In this document: piece by piece, positions 15,683 through 59,066 of the stretch
Layout: each line of letters starts with the position of its first letter
Position numbering within the stretch: the first letter of the stretch is position 1
Sequence record: OR924452
Length of the DNA: 64,000 nt
Source: Escherichia phage 241
Direction: 5' to 3' (one strand)
Made by a program: the position numbers and the translations under genes
Notes under the pieces: generated by a model
The model's input: the letters and a program-made list of their open reading frames with translations, nothing else
What the model was told of the DNA's origin: nothing
The model's database searches: none

Positions 15683-15708
15683 AACCCCGCTTCGGCGGGG
15701 TTTTCCTT
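15683..15708 (+). terminator. rho-independent terminator
   Basis: CCCCGC-TTCG-GCGGGG hairpin followed by TTTT, after sheath stop. Confidence 0.7.
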
Positions 15709-15732
15709 TATCCCACATATTTGAGTTATTGA

Positions 15733-20696: not shown

Positions 20697-22019
20697 ATGA
20701 CTAAGAAACTTGTAACCGAAGAAATGCGCAAACAGTGGCTGCCAGTTCTCCAAAAAGAATCTGAAGCCATCCAACCTCTGTCTGCCGAAAACGTAACCAT
20801 CCGTCTGATGCAAAACCAGGCCGAGTGGAACGCTAAAAACCTGGGCGAATCCGACGCTCCTGGTTCTGTAAACAGCACTGTCGGTAAATGGCAGCCAGTC
20901 CTGATCGACATGGCAAAACGTCTGGCGCCGATCAACATCGCAATGGACTTCTTCGGCGTTCAGCCGCTGTCTGGTCCTGATGGTCAGATCTTCGCACTGC
21001 GTGCTCGCCAAGGCGTTGGTGACGGTTCTACTACCGCTCAGGCGCGTAAAGAACTGTTCATGAACGAAGCCGATTCCGGCTACTCTGGTGATGGCACTGT
21101 ACAGGCTGGTGACCCGTCAGGCTTCAGTCAGGCTGAGATCGAAGGTTCCGGCTCTGTCGTGACCACTATCGGTAAAGGTATGCCGTCAACCGACGCGGAA
21201 CTGCTGGGTACTACCACCAATCCGTGGGCGCGTGTTGGTATCACCGTTCAGAAAGCGACCGTTACTGCCAAGTCTCGCGGCCTGTATGCTGATTACAGCC
21301 ATGAACTGCGTCAGGATATGATGGCAATTCACGGCGAAGACGTGGACAATATCCTGTCTGACGTGATGGTAACTGAAATTCAGGCGGAAATGAACCGTGA
21401 ATTCATCCGCACCATGAACTTCAGTGCTGTTCGTTTCAAAAAATTCGGCACCAACGGTGTTGTTGATATCGCGCAGGACATCTCCGGTCGTTGGGCGCTG
21501 GAAAAATGGAAATTCCTGACTTTCATGCTGGAAGTCGAAGCGAATGGTATCGGCGTTGACACCCGTCGTGGTAAAGGCAACCGTGTTCTGTGTTCTCCGA
21601 ACGTGGCGTCTGCTCTGGCGATGTCCGGCATGCTGGACTATGCTCCGGTTCTGCAGGAAAACACCAAACTGGCTGTTGACCCGACTGGTCAGACCTTCGC
21701 GGGTGTTCTGTCCAACGGTATGCGCGTCTATGTTGACCCGTATGCTGTAGCAGAATATATCACCCTGGCGTACAAAGGCGCGACTGCGCTGGATGCTGGT
21801 ATCTTCTTCGCACCGTATGTGCCGCTGGAAATGTACCGCACCCAGGGTGAAACCACCTTCGCTCCGCGTATGGCGTTCAAAACCCGTTACGGCATCTGTG
21901 CTAACCCGTTCGTTCAGATTCCGGCTAACCAAGACCCGCAGGTTTACGTGACTGCTGACGGTATTGCTCAAGACAGCAACCCATACTTCCGTAAAGGTCT
22001 CATCAAATCTCTGTTCTAA
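20697..22019 (+). CDS. major capsid protein, T4 gp23-like
   Basis: INIAMDFFGVQPLSGPDGQIFALRARQG matches T4 gp23 NLIAFDICGVQPMNSPTGQVFALRAVYG; C-terminal AFKTRYGICANPF matches GFKTRYGIGINPF. Confidence 0.9.
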   Translation: MTKKLVTEEMRKQWLPVLQKESEAIQPLSAENVTIRLMQNQAEWNAKNLGESDAPGSVNSTVGKWQPVLIDMAKRLAPINIAMDFFGVQPLSGPDGQIFALRARQGVGDGSTTAQARKELFMNEADSGYSGDGTVQAGDPSGFSQAEIEGSGSVVTTIGKGMPSTDAELLGTTTNPWARVGITVQKATVTAKSRGLYADYSHELRQDMMAIHGEDVDNILSDVMVTEIQAEMNREFIRTMNFSAVRFKKFGTNGVVDIAQDISGRWALEKWKFLTFMLEVEANGIGVDTRRGKGNRVLCSPNVASALAMSGMLDYAPVLQENTKLAVDPTGQTFAGVLSNGMRVYVDPYAVAEYITLAYKGATALDAGIFFAPYVPLEMYRTQGETTFAPRMAFKTRYGICANPFVQIPANQDPQVYVTADGIAQDSNPYFRKGLIKSLF

Positions 22020-22064: not shown

Positions 22065-22115
22065 TTTATAGGGATATGTAAGATAATAAAGCCTCATTTA
22101 TCAAAGGAGGTTAAA

Positions 22116-22352
22116 ATGTCTCATCAATTATCCGGCGGTGCCATCGATACTCTATTCGTTCTTTTCTGGTTTGGACCTCGTGAAGCTGGGGAAATACCTG
22201 CTAAATCTGGAGAAGCCGAATTGGCATCCCTGGGGTTTTGTAAACGAGTTGATGTTAAAAACGTACCAAAAGGTCGAGATACACATCTGTGTGTACTCAC
22301 CGAGGAAGGTTACAAATACGCATATCTGAAATATGTTTCTCAAAATACGTGA
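22116..22352 (+). CDS. hypothetical protein (78 aa), possible small winged-helix protein
   Basis: Strong AAAGGAGG RBS; function guess is weak. Confidence 0.5.
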   Translation: MSHQLSGGAIDTLFVLFWFGPREAGEIPAKSGEAELASLGFCKRVDVKNVPKGRDTHLCVLTEEGYKYAYLKYVSQNT

Positions 22353-22439
22353 TTGTTTATCGTAACGATTTAATACGCGAATAGTTCAATAACAATTCCT
22401 GTTGTACGATATAACTTTCTTACAACAGGAGTATCAGTC

Positions 22440-22754
22440 ATGACAACCCGAAATATTACCTCTGAACAATCCGTGTCACAAATCCTCATTAATTCCCGCA
22501 CCCAAAAAGAACGTCTTTTTGACATCCTCACTAATGTGATCAATATTCGTCGACAATTAGATGGTGAATTTCCCGAATCTGATTCTGAAGAAAAATCAAC
22601 ATACAATCCAGGTCTTGTTGGTGCTATCCTTAACATACAAGGAGAGCAGGACGATATCATCGATAGAATCAATGCCCACATGGACGTCATCCATACTAAA
22701 CTGGGAACGTTTTATCACCCAAATTGTGAAGACGAGTCTAAAGATAATTGTTAA
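22440..22754 (+). CDS. hypothetical protein (104 aa)
   Basis: ORF with AGGAG RBS. Confidence 0.5.
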   Translation: MTTRNITSEQSVSQILINSRTQKERLFDILTNVINIRRQLDGEFPESDSEEKSTYNPGLVGAILNIQGEQDDIIDRINAHMDVIHTKLGTFYHPNCEDESKDNC

Positions 22755-23685: not shown

Positions 23686-23922
23686 ATGAGAATCAAAAAG
23701 ATTGGAGCAAGCCCGTTGACGGGCACTATCTTCCAAGGTACATTGAATACCAAAACCAGTATGTGGGTAGGTGAGAAGACCGACGTGACTAACGACTGTG
23801 TAGCGGCTACGGCTGAACACATGCGCCACATCAAGAAAGACTACTGCTTCCCTACTAAAGACGGCAAGTTCCTGGTGCTGAGCGCTGAGGTTCACGACAC
23901 TCTTCCTGATCGCTTCAAATAA
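23686..23922 (+). CDS. hypothetical protein (78 aa)
   Basis: ORF with GAGG RBS. Confidence 0.45.
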   Translation: MRIKKIGASPLTGTIFQGTLNTKTSMWVGEKTDVTNDCVAATAEHMRHIKKDYCFPTKDGKFLVLSAEVHDTLPDRFK

Positions 23923-23947
23923 ATTTAAAATTTATTCAATAAACGGG

Positions 23948-23976
23948 GTTTACTTCTTCAATAAACCCCGTATACT
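23948..23976 (+). promoter_or_regulatory. sigma70-like early promoter (-35 GTTTAC, -10 TATACT, 17-nt spacer)
   Basis: GTTTACTTCTTCAATAAACCCCGTATACT; same architecture repeated at 58621 and 42577/42929. Confidence 0.5.
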
Positions 23977-24025
23977 TCATTCCATAAGCAGCACAACACT
24001 GACTCTGAAATGAAGGAACTACATC

Positions 24026-24490
24026 ATGACAACCGTAAAAATCTCCGTCTGGGCATTCAACAATTTCACCAAATTTGACGCGTTTGTTAAAAACGCTCTG
24101 GGCATCACCAACATAGAATCTTTCACTTCTTATGACCGCGAAGATCAGGTCAAAATGCTTCGTCCTGAAATCGACCTTGACGCAATGCTGAACGCCATCA
24201 AGAATCACGATGACAATCTGGCTGAATTCGAAAACCTCCGCACCTCTATCTTCAAAAAGAATGGCGGCATCCGTAAGCTGAGCAACAAAACCATCAAATA
24301 TGTCACCGAAGGGTTCTTTGTGGTGTTCGACTTCATAGAAACCAAGCCGAACGAACTTCGTAAAGATTTAGACGGCAACGTTATCACCCTGAAAATGTTT
24401 GGCGAAGCCAAGGCCGATATGATGCGTGATGGCCTGTGTGATGAGACATTCACATACGACGAATATTGCGATCAGTGCCAAGATCTGTAA
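24026..24490 (+). CDS. hypothetical protein (154 aa)
   Basis: ORF downstream of early promoter; GGAACTACATC-ATG context. Confidence 0.5.
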   Translation: MTTVKISVWAFNNFTKFDAFVKNALGITNIESFTSYDREDQVKMLRPEIDLDAMLNAIKNHDDNLAEFENLRTSIFKKNGGIRKLSNKTIKYVTEGFFVVFDFIETKPNELRKDLDGNVITLKMFGEAKADMMRDGLCDETFTYDEYCDQCQDL

Positions 24491-39693: not shown

Positions 39694-39960
39694 TTCTTCA
39701 AAAGTCTTTCAAAATCAATAACGTCCGGCAAAATGCTGGGCGTTTCAATTAATAAGCCAAGGTATAATGGCCCAACTGAAAACGCGGGGGAATTTCTTTG
39801 TCCAAGCCATTCATTCGTTCCGGAGTTGATTCTCTAGACTCCCAGTTTAAGCCGAGCGAAGTTTTAATCCAACAAATTGAAACCAATCGTGAATTCATAG
39901 AACACATGTTGGCAAAGCCGGAAGGTGAAGCCGCTCAAACCACCAAAGAAGGTAATAACG

Positions 39961-42177
39961 ATGATTGAATCATTAACATTTAAAAATGCGGTAGCAACCG
40001 TCGCGCCGTCTAACCATGTAATCGTTGTGGATATCTCCGGTTCCATGTACCGTTCACTTCCTGAAGTTCGCAAGCATCTGAAGGAAAATCTCCCGTCTCT
40101 GGTTAAACCAGAAGATACCGTCAGCATTCTTTACTTTTCATCCCGTGGTGATTTCGGTACGGTATTCGCTGGCCGTCAGATCAATAGCGCGACCGATCTC
40201 AGTGAAATCAATAAACTGATTGACCGCTTCCTGCAACCGTCCGGTTGTACGGGATTTGTAGAACCTCTGAAGTTGGCTGCTGAAACCGCGTTGAGCCTGA
40301 ACAAACCTGGTTATGTCAATAACCTGGCGTTCATGACCGACGGCTATGACAACTGCTGGCGCTCGAATGAAATTCTGGCAGCAGCTGAAGTACTGCCCAA
40401 GGCGTTCGATAATATTACATTCATCGAATATGGCTGGTACTGTAACCGCGAACTTCTGGCCCTGATGTCCGAGCGTTCTGGCGCGACTCACGTGTTTGCC
40501 GAAGGTCAGACTGAATATCAGACCGAACTGGAAAACGTACTGAAATCATCTACGCCGAAAGTGGTTGTTGATGTTCCCCTGGTTTACACTCATGCCATTT
40601 ACGTTGAAAACGGCGTGGCAACTGTGCTAGCCGTACAACCCGATGAAGAACACCCGATTGGCCACGTCAGCATCCCTGAAAGCGTTTCTCAGCTGTGGGT
40701 TGTAAACCCTGACATGATCGACCAGCTGGATAATCTGGCAGACACCCAGGCGGCATACGTGCTGGCATTCTATGGCGTGTACACCATGGACGCCGATCTG
40801 GTCTGGGCCGCGCTGAAGAAGACGGGTGACGTCCGCTTCATCAAACAATACAGCAACTGTTTCACCAAGCAGGACTATTCCAACATCAAAGTCGATCTGA
40901 CCCAGGCTATCGTGGATGAAACTCTGCGCGGCGTAGATGGCATCGATTACAATATGGTTCCAGCTGAAGATGCAACGACCATTGTTGATGTCTTGACCTA
41001 CCTGGCCGAAGCCGATGTCTCTGTTGTCACTAAGCATCCGCTGTTCTCTTACAACAGCATCGGTCGCGGTACTGTGCAGAAAGTTGATGACACTGAAGAC
41101 AAGCTGGCTGAACAAATCGCCGAAGCCAAAACCAAAGCAGAGCGTAAAGCGCTGGCTCTCAAACTGGCTGAGCACGAAGATTGGACGCCGGAATTTACTC
41201 CGGTTGATGACAAAGGGATTGTCCCAATTAGCAATCTGGTCTACAATTCAGAGCGCCCTAACATCAGCATTCAGACCGTTCAGCATGGGACGGTTGTTGT
41301 GCCGGAGTTCGTACAGAAGAAATATGAACTCCCTGAAGAACTGGGAACCTGGCGTTATCGTAATTACACCATCGTCAAAGATGGAATCATCAACCTGAAG
41401 ACGATGCCGATTACTGCCGAATCTCCGATTGTCCGAGCTAAGGTTGTCCAAGATTTGATCGCCATGGGCGTTAATGTATTTGGTGGACCGGAAATCTTCA
41501 TCGTTAATTTAGAAAGTGTTCCGATGGTCAACCGCGCCATGACCAAGAACATCAGTGCTGCCGAATTCTTCGCTGACAACGTTCGTCGCGAAGCGCTGAA
41601 GGCAAAACAGAAAGTTCTGAAATTCTATCGTGATGAACTGGTTGGCAAAGGCAATGCAACTGGTCTGGCTTCTAAATATGGTAAAGAAGCCGCCGATTTC
41701 TTGTCGGCAAATGGCATTCGCGACTACGGGTTCTCGCCGAAAACTACTTCTGTGGAATCAACCGATGTCTACATGAGCCGTGAGCTGAATGTGAAAATCA
41801 AAGGTGCTTCGTCGCTGCCGAGCATTGCGTCAGTTATCAAAAAGCAAGCAGATGGTAAAAAACTGAATGTCGCTGATCAGTTGATTGCCAATGCTCTGGC
41901 CGAATACGACGCTTTTGTTAAATCTCCAATGATCACCAGCGTACCTGAAGAGACTCAGAAAAAGCTGATTGAAAGCTGGATCGGAGACGCAGCAAAAGCG
42001 GCCATTAACGAAGTCCGCGCCCTGAACAAAACGCTGTCTAAAGTCGTTTACGGCATCGTCGCTGGTCATGGTTGGTTCACTGATTTGGATCTGGAAGAGT
42101 CTACGATGGATGTAGAAGTTGATGGGGTGAAATACACCGTCACTGCCGAACTGGCCGAAAAAGAAATCAAAATCTAA
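39961..42177 (+). CDS. von Willebrand factor type A (vWA) domain protein with long C-terminal extension
   Basis: MIDAS motif VVDISGSM (DxSxS) and downstream MTDGYDN; ATG 39961 preferred over upstream GTG 39925. Confidence 0.65.
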   Translation: MIESLTFKNAVATVAPSNHVIVVDISGSMYRSLPEVRKHLKENLPSLVKPEDTVSILYFSSRGDFGTVFAGRQINSATDLSEINKLIDRFLQPSGCTGFVEPLKLAAETALSLNKPGYVNNLAFMTDGYDNCWRSNEILAAAEVLPKAFDNITFIEYGWYCNRELLALMSERSGATHVFAEGQTEYQTELENVLKSSTPKVVVDVPLVYTHAIYVENGVATVLAVQPDEEHPIGHVSIPESVSQLWVVNPDMIDQLDNLADTQAAYVLAFYGVYTMDADLVWAALKKTGDVRFIKQYSNCFTKQDYSNIKVDLTQAIVDETLRGVDGIDYNMVPAEDATTIVDVLTYLAEADVSVVTKHPLFSYNSIGRGTVQKVDDTEDKLAEQIAEAKTKAERKALALKLAEHEDWTPEFTPVDDKGIVPISNLVYNSERPNISIQTVQHGTVVVPEFVQKKYELPEELGTWRYRNYTIVKDGIINLKTMPITAESPIVRAKVVQDLIAMGVNVFGGPEIFIVNLESVPMVNRAMTKNISAAEFFADNVRREALKAKQKVLKFYRDELVGKGNATGLASKYGKEAADFLSANGIRDYGFSPKTTSVESTDVYMSRELNVKIKGASSLPSIASVIKKQADGKKLNVADQLIANALAEYDAFVKSPMITSVPEETQKKLIESWIGDAAKAAINEVRALNKTLSKVVYGIVAGHGWFTDLDLEESTMDVEVDGVKYTVTAELAEKEIKI

Positions 42178-42183
42178 ATCTAA

Positions 42184-42210
42184 TTGGCGGGGAAACCCGC
42201 CTTTACTTTC
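42184..42210 (+). terminator. hairpin terminator
   Basis: GGCGGG-GAAA-CCCGCC hairpin followed by TTTACTTTC. Confidence 0.5.
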
Positions 42211-42215
42211 AGGAA

Positions 42216-42533
42216 ATGAATATGAGCAACAAACCGACTTATGTTGATGTCATGCGCGATTTGGCCCAATACGCATGTGACAACCTGAACATGGAAACTT
42301 GGCGCAACGGCGATCATAAAGAAAAGTTCGATAATATCGACGACAACATCGATGCGTTGGCTCCTCTTCGGGCCAAGAGCGATCTCGGCGGTGATGATCT
42401 TGACATGATTGAACTCATCATGGAAGTTGAAGAACAATATGATGTTGAAATCAGTGATGACTGGGTAGGCAAACATGGTGATGATCCCACGCTCGGCGAA
42501 TTAGCTGAATTGGTAGTTGCCCTCCGCAAATAG
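42216..42533 (+). CDS. acyl-carrier-protein-like protein with Asp in place of the phosphopantetheine-attachment Ser
   Basis: LGGDDLDMIELIMEVEEQYDVEISDD resembles ACP LGADSLDTVELVMALEEEF...IPDE but has DDL instead of DSL; start may be 42222. Confidence 0.5.
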   Translation: MNMSNKPTYVDVMRDLAQYACDNLNMETWRNGDHKEKFDNIDDNIDALAPLRAKSDLGGDDLDMIELIMEVEEQYDVEISDDWVGKHGDDPTLGELAELVVALRK

Positions 42534-42537
42534 CAGA

Positions 42538-42566
42538 AGTCCCCAACAAACCGTTGGGGATTTTTA
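42538..42566 (+). terminator. rho-independent terminator
   Basis: CCCCAAC-AAACC-GTTGGGG hairpin followed by ATTTTTACTTTT. Confidence 0.65.
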
Positions 42567-42655
42567 CTTTTAGGGGGTTTACTCTAGAGAAAGGATACCC
42601 TATTATCCAATAACACCAAACGTCGGGTTTGGTATTTGAAATGAAGGAATATAAT
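42556..42655 (+). repeat. direct repeat copy A (promoter plus 5' leader), about 100 bp
   Basis: GGGGATTTTTACTTTTAGGGG..TTTAC...CCTATTAT..CAATAAC shared with copy B. Confidence 0.6.
42577..42606 (+). promoter_or_regulatory. sigma70-like early promoter (-35 GTTTAC, -10 TATTAT)
   Basis: GTTTAC, 17-18 nt spacer, TATTAT; within repeat copy A. Confidence 0.45.
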
Positions 42656-42874
42656 ATGGCTATCTCACAAACCGTTGACCTCAAACCGTTTCATCTTAAC
42701 AACTTACCAAACGTGAAACTGGTACTATACAAAGATCCCTCAAATTTTTGTTGGGTGGCCAGTTGTGACACACATAACAACCGCCGTGCTGTTTGGGACT
42801 TCCCTCCAACAGACGAAGGGCGTGTTGAGGCCATCCGAAAACTAGAATTTGAAAATCTAAAACGGACAGCCTGA
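42656..42874 (+). CDS. hypothetical protein (73 aa)
   Basis: ATG 42656 with GAAATGAAGGAATATAAT-ATG context. Confidence 0.45.
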   Translation: MAISQTVDLKPFHLNNLPNVKLVLYKDPSNFCWVASCDTHNNRRAVWDFPPTDEGRVEAIRKLEFENLKRTA

Positions 42875-42892
42875 GATACCAAATAACAGAAA

Positions 42893-42925
42893 TCCCCAAT
42901 AATTTATTGGGGATTTTTACTTTTA
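42893..42925 (+). terminator. rho-independent terminator
   Basis: CCCCAAT-AATTT-ATTGGGG hairpin followed by ATTTTTACTTTT. Confidence 0.6.
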
Positions 42926-43003
42926 GGGGTTTACTTCTTCTAACGAATATCCTATTATTCAATAACTGGCTAACGTGGGGTTGGCTAGAAAAGGAGATAC
43001 AAA
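42909..43003 (+). repeat. direct repeat copy B (promoter plus 5' leader)
   Basis: Imperfect copy of 42556-42655. Confidence 0.6.
42929..42958 (+). promoter_or_regulatory. sigma70-like early promoter (-35 GTTTAC, -10 TATTAT)
   Basis: Within repeat copy B. Confidence 0.45.
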
Positions 43004-43243
43004 ATGAAACTACCAGGTCATATTGAAGTTTATATGCGGTTATACAAAGAAGGTAACGCCGCTGCTAAAGAACTACACGAACTGATTTTGTCATATGGCG
43101 TTAAGTCTGTTACAGAAGTAAAGAACAACAAAATAGACGGCGAATATGTGTCAATCAATGGGCGTGGTCTGAAAACCAACCCAACATATTTTGTGGGTGT
43201 CCATTTAGACACAGGGAAAGAAGTCGTGGAGATCGTGGCATAA
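43004..43243 (+). CDS. hypothetical protein (79 aa)
   Basis: ORF with AAAGGAGA RBS. Confidence 0.5.
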   Translation: MKLPGHIEVYMRLYKEGNAAAKELHELILSYGVKSVTEVKNNKIDGEYVSINGRGLKTNPTYFVGVHLDTGKEVVEIVA

Positions 43244-43482
43244 TGTCTAATAAGAAAGTTGAAACGACGGTAGAAATTGATCGTAATTGGGGATTACTCC
43301 GCGCTAAAGGTTTTCGTCGCGTTTATATGACCAAGGAAGTTTATGTTCAGCGTCGTGACGTTATTATCAGCAAGAAAGGTAAAGACTGGGTTGCCGAAGA
43401 AGTTGATGTTGAGACTGGCGTCGTCGGCAAGGTGAAGGCCAAGGCCGCGATCCTCTTCGCTCTTCTGAAGCATATCAATTAA
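43243..43482 (+). CDS. hypothetical protein (79 aa)
   Basis: ATG overlaps previous stop (TAATG). Confidence 0.45.
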   Translation: MSNKKVETTVEIDRNWGLLRAKGFRRVYMTKEVYVQRRDVIISKKGKDWVAEEVDVETGVVGKVKAKAAILFALLKHIN

Positions 43483-43493
43483 TTCTATAATTT

Positions 43494-43522
43494 ACGGCGG
43501 GGTATGATTATCCCGCCTATTT
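43494..43522 (+). terminator. rho-independent terminator
   Basis: GGCGGG-loop-CCCGCC hairpin followed by TATTTG. Confidence 0.5.
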
Positions 43523-43542
43523 GAAATTGCAGGAACTATATC

Positions 43543-43821
43543 ATGACAGATCAAAGAAGTATTGCTCGTTCGGAAATCAAAGATATTATACAGAGCAAGA
43601 CCAACGAAACTCATGTTCAATCCAGAATGCTATCTCGATTTGTTGAAATTAAGTTCGACATTGAAGAGAATAACAATCGGAGAGCGCTGGAGGGGATGTT
43701 GGCGATTATCTTGCGCCACGTCACCGATTCAACATATGATATGGATGATTTAACTCGTTTGTTGAACGCCCAGAATATCGTTGGGACTTCTGTTCGTGAA
43801 TTGCTGTTTAAGTCTGAATGA
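43543..43821 (+). CDS. hypothetical protein (92 aa)
   Basis: CAGGAACTATATC-ATG initiation context. Confidence 0.45.
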   Translation: MTDQRSIARSEIKDIIQSKTNETHVQSRMLSRFVEIKFDIEENNNRRALEGMLAIILRHVTDSTYDMDDLTRLLNAQNIVGTSVRELLFKSE

Positions 43822-43858
43822 ACTAACTAAGGGATAACCATATATCCCGAGGTGTGTC

Positions 43859-44308
43859 ATGTTTCTTACATCCTTTATTGACTGGATGAATATCATAAAT
43901 GGCCTGAGGATTCCTGTTGGGAATCTCGGGCTTTCTCGTTCTTCTATGCCGCAAATCGATGCAGACAAACAAGAAGATTTTCACAAATATCTTGAAGATA
44001 ATGGCGTGTCCATAGATGCCGCACAAGTGCCCATCAAAATGCTTCGTCTTACCCAGAATGAAATCAATAAAATGAAGGTCTGGAAGATCATGAAGCAAAT
44101 CAGAAATAAGAAACCCATGGGTCGAGTTTGGGTGTCTTCTGACAATTACGTTGTTGACGGTTCTCACCGATTTGTCGCTGCGTTGAACATGGATGGTAAA
44201 CAGCGAATGAAGGTCTACAAAGTTGATTTGCCTGCGATGGAATTCGTAAAACTCGCCAAACAATTTCAGGGTGTGCGGTACAGAACGGTCAGCGATACCC
44301 GTTTCTGA
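43859..44308 (+). CDS. ParB-like nuclease domain protein
   Basis: VVDGSHRFVAALNMDGKQRMKVYKV matches the ParB/Srx DGxHR signature. Confidence 0.5.
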   Translation: MFLTSFIDWMNIINGLRIPVGNLGLSRSSMPQIDADKQEDFHKYLEDNGVSIDAAQVPIKMLRLTQNEINKMKVWKIMKQIRNKKPMGRVWVSSDNYVVDGSHRFVAALNMDGKQRMKVYKVDLPAMEFVKLAKQFQGVRYRTVSDTRF

Positions 44309-44387
44309 ATACGATAGTTTATTGAAACCCTTTACTCAACATGGTGAGCCGACTATCATTTTATCCAATGAAATAAGGAGAATCACC

Positions 44388-45077
44388 ATGAAACGTTTAA
44401 TCATCGGGGTTGTGCTGGCTGGTCTGGCACTTCCTGCCACCGCCAAGCTGAACTCCACAGGTGAAAAACTGTGGTCTGATCTTTCCTACTGTGCTGGGTT
44501 CTCCCAGGCGGTCGCTATCGACAAGTCCGGTTCCATAGAGAATTTTGCTGAACTTTGGAACACGGGTAACGTCTCCACTGCTGTTGTTAATGCTGGGATT
44601 GAGTTCAACCGTTACAAACAGGGAGCCTACAACTTGAAAGGCTACCTGAATGACGATGAATTTAACCGAGGAGGCATGGAGGCTGGCGATCTCATCATGA
44701 CTGGCCGTATGGGTACACAAGGCCGTATGACTGTAAGGCAATGCCGTTCTCTCCCCTCTCCGGCATTACAGAAGGGTGTGCAAATCGGGCGTCGACATCT
44801 GGATCTGATTAATGATGGCAACCAATGCATCAAGGTGTTTGAATATAGTGCCGACCAAGAATCAGATCGACGTTTGAAAAAGGAATGGCGGACACGTGCC
44901 CTTGGATTGAGAGCATGGCTGGTGGAAAATGATCATTATTATGAAGACCGTGTTCAGAATGGTTTGAAAGATCTTTCCACTAATTTGTCTGTCAATCTTG
45001 ATGATCCCAGGCTTGCCCGTGAACTCAAGCAAACAAGAATTGACTGTGATAATATGATGAAGGAGAACGAAAGATGA
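44388..45077 (+). CDS. secreted/periplasmic protein (signal peptide)
   Basis: MKRLIIGVVLAGLALPATA signal peptide; AAGGAG RBS; ATG 44388 inside ORF 44271-45077. Confidence 0.5.
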   Translation: MKRLIIGVVLAGLALPATAKLNSTGEKLWSDLSYCAGFSQAVAIDKSGSIENFAELWNTGNVSTAVVNAGIEFNRYKQGAYNLKGYLNDDEFNRGGMEAGDLIMTGRMGTQGRMTVRQCRSLPSPALQKGVQIGRRHLDLINDGNQCIKVFEYSADQESDRRLKKEWRTRALGLRAWLVENDHYYEDRVQNGLKDLSTNLSVNLDDPRLARELKQTRIDCDNMMKENER

Positions 45078-47269: not shown

Positions 47270-47579
47270 ACCGTTTGAACTTAAATTTCGCGTTTGGCAT
47301 ATTCCCCAGGTTCCTGGGATCGCTTTTCATGTTGAGGTTCCAACATTTGAAGAAGCGCAGCGCCTGAAGAATACTCTGGCTGATTACGACCTGTTTCAGT
47401 ATAACAATAACATCAAGCCGGATTATTGTAATGCTTCCGGCGTTCAAATATACCAACATGATCTGACTGAAGAAGATCTAAATGATATGGGTCTGGATGA
47501 TCGTTGGGTTGATATCGAAGATATTGACGAACTCAACGATTATTTTGATCATCTGCGTAGCACAGGGTGGGAAATATGA
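47259..47579 (+). CDS. hypothetical acidic protein (106 aa)
   Basis: ORF overlapping neighbours. Confidence 0.45.
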   Translation: MSNKPFELKFRVWHIPQVPGIAFHVEVPTFEEAQRLKNTLADYDLFQYNNNIKPDYCNASGVQIYQHDLTEEDLNDMGLDDRWVDIEDIDELNDYFDHLRSTGWEI

Positions 47580-47785
47580 TCGGGTTAATCCGTTATCTGT
47601 TCATATTCGTAATTTCAACATTCATTTTATTTTTCTTTTTCAAATACTTGAAAGAGACTAAAATCTACCGAAGTAAACGTTGGCGCAAACGGGTGAGGGT
47701 AACTTTCCTGCTGCTGATTTCTTCGGTTACAATAACCGCACTCACATTGGGTGCATATATCTACATTTTTGAAGGGATACATTGA
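47567..47785 (+). CDS. small membrane protein (two predicted TM helices)
   Basis: Hydrophobic segments IGLIRYLFIFVISTFILFFFF and VTFLLLISSVTITALTLGAYIYIF. Confidence 0.4.
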   Translation: MGNMIGLIRYLFIFVISTFILFFFFKYLKETKIYRSKRWRKRVRVTFLLLISSVTITALTLGAYIYIFEGIH

Positions 47786-57955: not shown

Positions 57956-58593
57956 TGAATATCACTCCATCTCAGACCGGATACGAGCACTTAATGGTGT
58001 TTATTGCGATTCAGGGGGCAAAAGAAGGCATCATCAGTTCTGAATATTCTGGAACGATGCGCCTGGCTGATTATGTTGCTCCCGAAGCGTTTATCAAGAA
58101 ATGTGTCGACGCATGGTGCCTTTATGCTATCGGCACGTATCCTACTCCTCCGGCAGGTGAGCTACTGTTTACCGTTCCGACCCCAGCCGCTGGCGACACA
58201 GACGCGATCTTTGCTGATATGTTGGCCAAAGGTTATCTGGCATATGATAGTGCTCACAATGTCTATGACTTCTCGGCGTTGAATCGTATCTTCGGATACA
58301 CCATAACATCCGAAGCCAATATTCCCGACTATGGAATTCTGGCATGGGGTATTGACGGTCTCGGCGCAACATATGCGTCTTCTGATGTTGGTCCTGTATT
58401 GATTGACACAGGTGTGACAATGGAGCAATACATGTCACAATTCCCTCAGCATAATGTTACCGGAAGCGACATCATTATTGTCTATCCTGGTTCTAATGCG
58501 TTGTCCCGCCTGGTGGACGGCTGGAAGCCTCAGCTGAAGGACATCGTTGCTGGAATCAGATTTCACATCCCTGTCGTCAATCCCACACCTTAA
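57955..58593 (+). CDS. hypothetical protein (212 aa)
   Basis: ATG overlaps previous stop. Confidence 0.5.
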   Translation: MNITPSQTGYEHLMVFIAIQGAKEGIISSEYSGTMRLADYVAPEAFIKKCVDAWCLYAIGTYPTPPAGELLFTVPTPAAGDTDAIFADMLAKGYLAYDSAHNVYDFSALNRIFGYTITSEANIPDYGILAWGIDGLGATYASSDVGPVLIDTGVTMEQYMSQFPQHNVTGSDIIIVYPGSNALSRLVDGWKPQLKDIVAGIRFHIPVVNPTP

Positions 58594-58620
58594 ATTATTC
58601 AATAAAAGGGGCAAACGCCC

Positions 58621-58649
58621 CTTTACTTCTTCAATAACCCACGTATAAT
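58621..58649 (+). promoter_or_regulatory. sigma70-like early promoter (-35 CTTTAC, -10 TATAAT, 17-nt spacer)
   Basis: CTTTACTTCTTCAATAACCCACGTATAAT following a GGGGC-AAAC-GCCCC hairpin. Confidence 0.5.
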
Positions 58650-58697
58650 TCTAAACATAAGCAGTACGACACCAACTTGAAAAGCAGGAACTATATC

Positions 58698-59066
58698 ATG
58701 ACCAAAACTGAATTGAACAACATTCTGAACGTTGCTGGGTACAAGAATATTCTTCGTGGGAACAACAAAATCGCGCGTGACCGTAGCAACAAAATCATCA
58801 AGGGGTTTCCCCTGTGTAAAACTGGTCCGCTCGATATCAGCAACCCGTCCAAGCGCTTGTTTAAAGACTTATTGCGTGAACTCGGCACTAAAGGCCTGGT
58901 GCTAGATAAAAAGGATGACCTGGTTGACTTTGGCATCGCGGTTATGAAGATTGCCAAATTCAAAATAACTCTGTGCGTACAGACAATTCAGACATATGAC
59001 TACTCTGAAGGCCGTGACCCGAATTACGAAACAAAATATGTCAACGTAAGGATTGAAGGGTTATAA
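58698..59066 (+). CDS. hypothetical protein (122 aa)
   Basis: CAGGAACTATATC-ATG context; ORF track start 58677 is further upstream. Confidence 0.45.
   Translation: MTKTELNNILNVAGYKNILRGNNKIARDRSNKIIKGFPLCKTGPLDISNPSKRLFKDLLRELGTKGLVLDKKDDLVDFGIAVMKIAKFKITLCVQTIQTYDYSEGRDPNYETKYVNVRIEGL

Follow-up and report, generated by a model that had tools for sequence, protein, structure and literature searches.

Escherichia phage 241 (sequence record OR924452) carries, in the variable region between its acyl carrier protein (ACP) gene and a ParB-like gene, a pair of composite intergenic elements, cassette A (42527..42655, + strand) and cassette B (42880..43003, + strand), that very probably are counterparts of the promoter-early stem-loops (PeSLs) of T4-like phages: they would set small genes apart as insulated units, and recombination between them would move a 353-bp gene module. 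(Coordinates are those of the 64,000-nucleotide stretch of this genome analysed here, referred to as the window.) By sequence, the phage is a Vi01-like Kuttervirus of the family Ackermannviridae; the 4-kb region around the repeat is ~97% identical to Salmonella phage Vi01, Mooltan and other Kuttervirus, and 251 phage records match this region. PeSLs are known from RB49/phi1, T4/PST and KVP40/nt-1 as a ~100-bp motif, made up of a stem-loop, an AT-rich stretch, a σ70 promoter and a Shine-Dalgarno (SD) sequence with ATG, that stands upstream of ORFans in hyperplastic regions; recombination between flanking PeSLs removes or inserts an open reading frame (ORF) and leaves one chimeric PeSL behind (Arbiol et al. 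2010, PMC2839356; Comeau et al. 2014, PMC4122927). A literature search for a link between PeSLs and Ackermannviridae, Vi01, CBA120 or Kuttervirus found none, and we found no earlier report from this family of a PeSL-like pair that appears to bound a mobile module. What is observed is the repeat, the conserved anatomy of its copies, covariation in both of their hairpins, and breakpoints within cassettes in three phage pairs, each independent of the others; from these we infer that promoters, terminators and leaders are active, that they act early, and that homologous recombination is the mechanism.

The initial annotation had proposed an imperfect direct repeat of about 100 bp at this place. 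The repeat is there, and is in fact longer: gapped global alignment of 42527-42656 with 42880-43003 yields 97 identical columns of 131 (74%), and the local alignment score of 55 passes the proposed check for identity above background (9.9 ± 1.9, maximum 20, in 500 shuffles). Copy A aligns with copy B and, in a wider alignment, with 19 other copies. The right-hand limit that had been suggested, the ATG of a gene of about 75 amino acids, holds (ATG at 42656 for gene X, 72 aa, and at 43004 for gene Y, 79 aa), as do the GTTTAC and TATTAT motifs of both copies (42577-82 and 42601-06 in A, 42929-34 and 42953-58 in B). The left-hand limit does not: the true start is ~29 nt further upstream, at 42527 and 42880, so that the whole of a putative terminator hairpin and a few preceding bases are included, and position 42556, which had been placed inside a T-run, is actually in the 3' arm of that hairpin. 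Likeness of the copies is uneven. Hairpin, T-run and -35 element are ~85-100% identical; the spacer between -35 and -10 and the leader are strongly diverged. The exact core common to A and B is the 23-nt sequence TTGGGGATTTTTACTTTTAGGGG (42554-42576 = 42907-42929, + strand); the 21-mer at its centre, GGGGATTTTTACTTTTAGGGG, has 2 occurrences in the 64 kb even at 3 mismatches, with 0 expected. An assembly artefact is ruled out, since 23 nt of exact repeat cannot make an assembly collapse or expand, and since the NCBI record of phage 241 annotates X.

On the + strand, the upstream stop codon is that of the ACP gene for copy A (42531-33; stop codon and last bases of the gene fall within the left end of the cassette) and that of gene X for copy B (42872-74). 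The predicted terminator hairpin of A (42535..42565, + strand) has a 13-bp stem (42535-47 paired with 42553-65) and the loop AAACC, is followed by the tail ACTTTTAGGGG, and folds as RNA at -19.0 kcal/mol (z -4.9). That of B (42888..42918, + strand) has a 14-bp stem, with the loop ATT in the fold, at -16.9 kcal/mol (z -4.25); it is the Mooltan hairpin with its loop flipped, and the Mooltan authors annotate the orthologous hairpin as a terminator. Both are of the CCCC...GGGG type, and qualify on sequence as the stable stem-loop of a PeSL-like element; in PeSLs this stem-loop is often poly-G/poly-C and serves as terminator or attenuator. The tail after the hairpin reads TTTTTACTTTTAGGGG; outer A-U pairs of the stem are drawn from the downstream T-run, and the stems are followed by TTTTT-AC-TTTT or are partly paired with it, which gives the combination of GC-hairpin and U-run expected of an intrinsic terminator. 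A terminator consensus scan of the window does not have the + strand cassette sites among its listings, probably because the stem reaches into the T-run.

The segment ATTTTTACTTTTA lies upstream of the -35 element, and the AT-rich stretch, SD sequence and ATG of a PeSL are all present, ahead of ORFs (X and Y) of no known function. The predicted promoters occupy 42577..42606 in A and 42929..42958 in B (both + strand), with -35 GTTTAC and -10 TATTAT; counted from TTTACT to TATTAT the spacer is 17 nt in both copies, and each promoter scores 9/12 against σ70. The leader hairpin starts ~8 nt past the -10 element, and thus at the predicted 5' end of the mRNA. In A it is ACCAAAC-GTCGG-GTTTGGT (42615..42633, + strand; fold -8.6 kcal/mol), in B CTGGCTAAC-GTGGG-GTTGGCTAG (42966..42988, + strand; fold -12.6 kcal/mol, z -4.6), and both take part in the covariation described below. 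SD and start codon follow at 42643-58 (X) and 42993-43006 (Y), + strand. The SD of Y is GGAG (42993-96); that of X is GAAGGA, without GGAG. GGAG is the cleavage site of the T4 RegB endoribonuclease, here coinciding with the SD of Y, and the Guerrero annotation includes a RegB homologue and a RegA homologue. Because of this difference in their SD sequences, the X and Y-Z units may differ in post-transcriptional shut-off. An Rfam 15 scan of 41800-44400 gave nothing above the gathering score, only two sub-threshold matches (30 and 24 bits, against a cutoff of 47).

Conservation across cassettes is judged from 20 distinct copies, taken from Kuttervirus, Agtrevirus, Limestonevirus (LIMEstone1 = L029), a Yersinia phage and metagenomic contigs. 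All 20 have the same TTTACT and TATTAT, set 17 nt apart without exception, and the spacer sequences between them are of at least 5 unrelated types; fixed hexamers and a fixed length around a variable spacer sequence look like the footprint of selection on a σ70 promoter. The terminator helix (helix 1) is 96.9% paired across the copies and the leader helix (helix 2) 89.9%, with changes on both sides in 6 of its 9 pairs. Together the two helices are 94% paired, as against 32-58% when their 3' partners are slid; both hairpins are preserved through compensatory and G-U changes. The many G-U pairs of the leader hairpin favour a function as + strand RNA over a DNA operator. Its loop is conserved and G-rich (G-N-N-G-G). 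Between the 3' arm of the terminator hairpin and a point just past the -10 element, the window is 93-98% identical to LIMEstone1, SW16-7, Det7 and pertopsoe, whereas the genes around the cassette are 66-92% identical (nt) in the same comparison, so that nothing else in the locus is as well conserved as this non-coding core. Spacer and leader of copy A, its right half, stand apart: they match no other cassette copy sampled in this or any other genome, and exact matches to the promoter spacer are missing from IMG/VR and from JGI metagenome contigs.

Close relatives keep the stem of the terminator hairpin but carry its loop in one or the other orientation (window 42541-42559 and 42894-42912 in the 20-copy alignment). 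The loop is AAACC in window A and Guerrero and GGTTT in L025, L008 and L011; AATTT in window B and AAATT in Mooltan; ATTT in ECML-4 and AAAAT in L023. AAAC and GTTT are swapped in orientation between the two cassettes of pertopsoe and likewise of L028. The outer stem is 'corrected' to a perfect palindrome in Det7_X, window B and pertopsoe_Z. From these sequences, the terminator loop looks like a site of recurrent hairpin flipping or of quasipalindrome template switching.

The 353-bp module (42577..42929, + strand) comprises promoter A, leader A, gene X and terminator B, and is missing in Guerrero, STML-13-1 and Vi01. Guerrero and STML-13-1, the closest relatives, differ from the window here by a single clean gap of 353 bp with both ends inside the 23-nt core. 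(Placement of the indel slides within this core; the aligner put it at 42554-42906.) The flanks are identical at 54/54 and 93/93 positions, and identity is 99-100% over >1 kb upstream. The single cassette of Vi01 and Guerrero is identical to copy A up to the core and to copy B from there to the start codon of Y; that of Mooltan, too, is identical to copy B from the core onward, and STML-13-1 likewise has one such chimera of A and B. Two further pairs repeat the pattern. Det7 and L020 (an IMG/VR genome) differ by a 356-bp X-module, with flanks 99-100% identical and the breakpoint in the cassette hairpin; L028 and L021 (two contigs of one metagenome) also differ by a 356-bp X-module, with the breakpoint in the same cassette. 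These are three independent events that involve three different X alleles (72-74% aa identity to window X), and each leaves an intact chimeric cassette. Flanks are 91-100% identical across the three pairs (99-100% in two of them). In all three, then, the indel between close relatives is bounded by cassettes, and a single chimeric cassette is found where the ORF is missing. Presence and absence in relatives thereby support what the initial annotation had suggested, modular shuffling of genes and a recombination substrate, the recombination being read from the breakpoints. The proposed comparison with relatives for the second unit has a clear outcome, but against the closest relatives it is the first unit (X) that varies. 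The notion of a promoter-gene-terminator unit repeated with different cargo is likewise sustained, except that the second unit holds two genes, Y and Z, and not one.

Between ACP and Z, four gene arrangements are found, one of them both with and without a second cassette. ACP, cassette, Z is the order in L008, L011-13, L020-22 and LIMEstone1; ACP, one cassette, Y-Z, without X, is that of the Vi01 type (Vi01, ECML-4, Guerrero, Mooltan); ACP, X and Z with two cassettes, one before X and one before Z, is that of Det7, pertopsoe, L028, the Agtrevirus phages pSal-SNUABM-02 and SW16-7, and Yersinia phage CAU_YEP3; ACP-X-Z without the second cassette is found in the Klebsiella phages L006 and L030. 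The order ACP, cassette, X, cassette, Y-Z is seen in this window only, and no INPHARED phage record spans the X-cassette-Y junction. In a 1.1-kb contig (L031, Logan SRR31629366, 1-1114) the order is cassette, Z, hairpin, X and so on to the ParB-like gene, with X in the slot of the window's 92-aa gene; X therefore occupies different slots. As to direction in the present genome, gain from an unsampled donor and retention with loss in relatives have about even odds. For gain, ~120 Vi01-type records are without X, and the right half of copy A is unique among sampled cassettes. For retention, window X has diverged from Det7-type X (74% aa) no further than the ACP allele beside it has (60% aa). Loss elsewhere could come about by deletion between direct repeats, which is the simplest mechanism and probably also what separates Det7 from L020.

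How the cassettes might work can be outlined from their anatomy. Terminator hairpin and T-run would end the upstream transcript; the GTTTAC/TATTAT promoter would be read by host RNA polymerase, presumably early in infection; the stem-loop with which the new mRNA begins would most likely shield it from 5'-end-dependent decay; SD and start codon would complete the cassette. With terminator, promoter, leader and SD supplied by each cassette, X, or the Y-Z pair, would be an insulated transcription unit. As the best-conserved DNA of the locus, the cassette would also supply portable homology, and recombination between two cassettes (within one genome, between co-infecting genomes or via an excised circle) would delete or insert the 353-bp module with promoter A, X and terminator B.

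The likeness to PeSLs is extensive: an intergenic composite motif with a stem-loop terminator, an AT-rich stretch, a σ70-like promoter and the SD-ATG of a small ORF of unknown function, situated in a variable region, and an ORF that stands between two cassettes in one phage and is replaced by one chimeric cassette in a close relative. There are differences as well. The phages are Ackermannviridae, not T4-like myoviruses; the stem-loop is always upstream of the -35 element here, and an extra covarying hairpin is found at the 5' end of the leader. PeSLs also form circular excision products, the PeSL mini-circles.

Several observations weigh against reading A and B as PeSL-type cassettes. They are sparse: 5 such promoters (two close copies and three looser ones) are found in the 64 kb of the window, which is part of the genome, as compared with ~50 PeSLs per genome in RB49 and phi1; the two copies and the promoter at 23.9 kb lie in variable blocks. 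Exact homology between A and B is just 23 nt, with 74% identity over ~125 nt, which is short for efficient homologous recombination. The fold energy of leader hairpin A is no better than that of shuffles (z -0.6). A search of the literature, not exhaustive, found no transcriptome or transcription start site study of the family. Some of the resemblance between A and B is phage-wide regulatory grammar and not a mark of common descent or mobility, since terminator tail and translation-initiation consensus are common property, and cassettes are not the sole route to indels, since others in the window end at start/stop codon junctions without a cassette.

The last two points can be pressed further, to the view that A and B are alike through regulatory grammar only, that they have no role in recombination, and that the indels are illegitimate events in intergenic DNA. 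The tail motif TTT(T)nCTTTn(n)AGG does stand behind five different + strand hairpins (22059, 42202, 42562, 42915 and 62164; the pattern matches 13 times, often with overlap, where 1.6 matches are expected), and the promoters at 23.9 kb and 58.6 kb have TTTACTTCTTC and the SD context in common. The exact 23-nt core is nonetheless found at A and B only, and three independent pairs have their breakpoints at homologous cassette positions, with a perfect chimeric cassette each time; illegitimate joins are not expected to rebuild an intact cassette three times, and we consider this view quite improbable. If the region between ACP and Y had recently been duplicated in tandem on the spot, through replication slippage for instance, and the cargo had been acquired or had diverged later, this would account for direct repeats 353 bp apart and for the bases before hairpin B, CAAATAACAGAA, which resemble the 3' end of ACP genes. 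Such a duplication is very unlikely nevertheless: X between two cassettes is old and widespread (Agtrevirus, Det7-type and pertopsoe-type Kuttervirus, Yersinia phage), X and Y belong to different protein families, and a right half of A that matches no sampled copy fits poorly with a recent in-situ copy of B.

An enzyme-driven mobile element, be it a homing-endonuclease cassette, a transposon or miniature inverted-repeat transposable element, or an integron-like cassette with the hairpin as site-specific recombination site, is brought to mind by the near-perfect palindrome of the hairpin, by the flipped loops of relatives and by the abundance of homing endonucleases in the family (GIY-YIG genes in Guerrero, 14 in LIMEstone1; PMC3296691). 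X, on the other hand, is a 72-aa protein without Pfam domain, the module neither contains nor adjoins a nuclease, transposase or integrase gene, and the direct copies are the only repeats, without terminal inverted repeats or a target-site duplication outside the cassette itself. Moreover, breakpoints differ among the three pairs (T-run/core in the window, hairpin in Det7/L020), as expected of homologous and not of site-specific exchange. An element of this kind is accordingly the least credible of the explanations and would be a great surprise. PeSL-type cassettes might also be more than the preferred reading asks of them: transferable vehicles, with excised circles of cassette plus ORF carrying X-like early genes between slots and genera in the manner of an integron without dedicated recombinase, and with the leader hairpin a new cis-regulatory RNA bound by a phage factor. 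The basis for this is the ~60-nt terminator/promoter core, 93-98% identical across at least 3 Ackermannviridae genera beside neighbouring genes at 66-92%; we think it unlikely.

T4 early promoters are strong and σ70-dependent, with -35 and -10 elements and A/T-rich DNA upstream, and are used by unmodified host polymerase right after infection (Hinton 2010, PMC2988021). The cassette promoters likewise have both elements and A/T-rich upstream DNA, but they lack the TGn of an extended -10, their -10 being TATTAT. ViI-like phages are without MotA and AsiA. The -35 consensus of T4 early promoters is GTTTAC, as in the cassettes. Stem-loops at the 5' terminus stabilise E. coli mRNAs, for example in the ompA leader. 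The leader hairpin of the cassettes resembles these in its place, within a few nt of where the transcript is predicted to begin and ahead of an SD region without structure; it differs in its conserved G-rich loop, which could be a protein-binding site.

Early promoters are reported to be hard to identify in the Ackermannviridae: the CBA120 paper found them not identifiable by informatics (PMC3184105), the AG3 paper gives eight σ70-like promoters (PMC3121705) and the LIMEstone paper proposes five early promoters for LIMEstone1 (PMC3296691). The cassettes offer a concrete and conserved promoter-terminator-leader design for the family, and would extend the PeSL route of gene gain and loss, known in T4-like phages, to a second family of large lytic phages. 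Members of the family are under development for biocontrol and are engineered by homologous recombination. The cassette would be a predictable site of instability there, because the 353-bp module can be lost, and also a natural landing pad for genes that carry their own expression signals.

The ACP gene (42216..42533, + strand) matches PF00550 (PP-binding, E=4.5e-7) and phrog_4154, and its product is 100% aa identical to that of STML-13-1. ACP exists as two deeply divergent alleles, the Vi01 type (103-105 aa) and the Det7 type (107 aa), with ~60% aa identity (window 42216-42533 compared with L005, L007, L028, L029 and L034-36); for the vWA gene directly upstream, window and Det7 share 95% identity. 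X goes with the Det7-type ACP in known phages; its neighbour in the window is an ACP of the Vi01 type.

Gene X (42656..42874, + strand; phrog_22629, E=3e-38, no Pfam match), the cargo of the variable module, encodes a protein that is 100% identical to one of Escherichia phage 241, the next best matches among 5.8 billion proteins being 79% and 73%; the exact protein is not indexed on any contig, and X at >80% nt identity is absent from all INPHARED phage records. No donor of the window's X module could be traced in these searches. Gene Y (43004..43243, + strand; phrog_14608), the first of the second unit, is found in Vi01-type relatives and is missing from every other sampled X-bearing phage. 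Gene Z (43243..43482, + strand, 79 aa; phrog_804) is kept in all relatives and overlaps the stop codon of Y at ATAATG. None of X, Y and Z has a Pfam domain, and each falls into a PHROG family of its own, the function of which is unknown; X and Y being unrelated, the cargo truly differs.

The second unit is closed by a hairpin (43496..43517, + strand; fold -19 kcal/mol), which is conserved and bounds the next variable slot on its left. Over the last 80 nt of Z, identity to Guerrero, Vi01 and ECML-4 falls from ~99% to ~81% (window 43400-43830). The 92-aa gene after Z (43543-43821) is swapped for two other small genes in Guerrero, where the replacement of cargo begins right past the ATG that follows the hairpin, that is, exactly behind conserved hairpin, SD and ATG. 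In Vi01 and Mooltan a denV (endonuclease V) gene stands between Z and the 92-aa gene.

The pattern TTTAC-N17/18-TAnn[AC]T occurs at seven sites in the 64 kb; five have SD and ATG downstream (23949, 42578, 42930, 44331 and 58622), and three of these five are behind a stable hairpin. In two of the tail motifs, at 42.20 and 62.16 kb, AGG(G) is also the SD for the gene that follows. Another dispersed pair of promoter-leader repeats, 34.7 kb apart, is found at 23905-24030 and 58580-58702, with the pattern ...ATTATTCAATAAA-GGGG-TTTACTTCTTCAATAA-..-TATA(C/A)T-..CATAAGCAG..-TGAAA.G.AGGAACTA.ATCATGAC; the Guerrero orthologues of its two copies cross-match the other copy at 76-81% identity, and the 23.9-kb copy is inside the variable block at 22.0-24.7 kb.

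Intergenic hairpins and translation-initiation regions are where other differences between window and Guerrero tend to have one of their ends, although several sit at plain start/stop junctions. A 676-nt segment with two small ORFs of 78 and 104 aa (22076-22751) is present in the window and missing in Guerrero; it lies directly behind the terminator of a 440-aa gene (20697-22019), which we take, by its position relative to the Guerrero annotation, to be the putative major capsid protein gene. Guerrero has extra segments of 720, 368 and 297 nt at window 15706-15732, 39795-39803 and 47573-47580. GIY-YIG nuclease genes are annotated between structural genes of Guerrero, and the 720-nt segment may be one of these.

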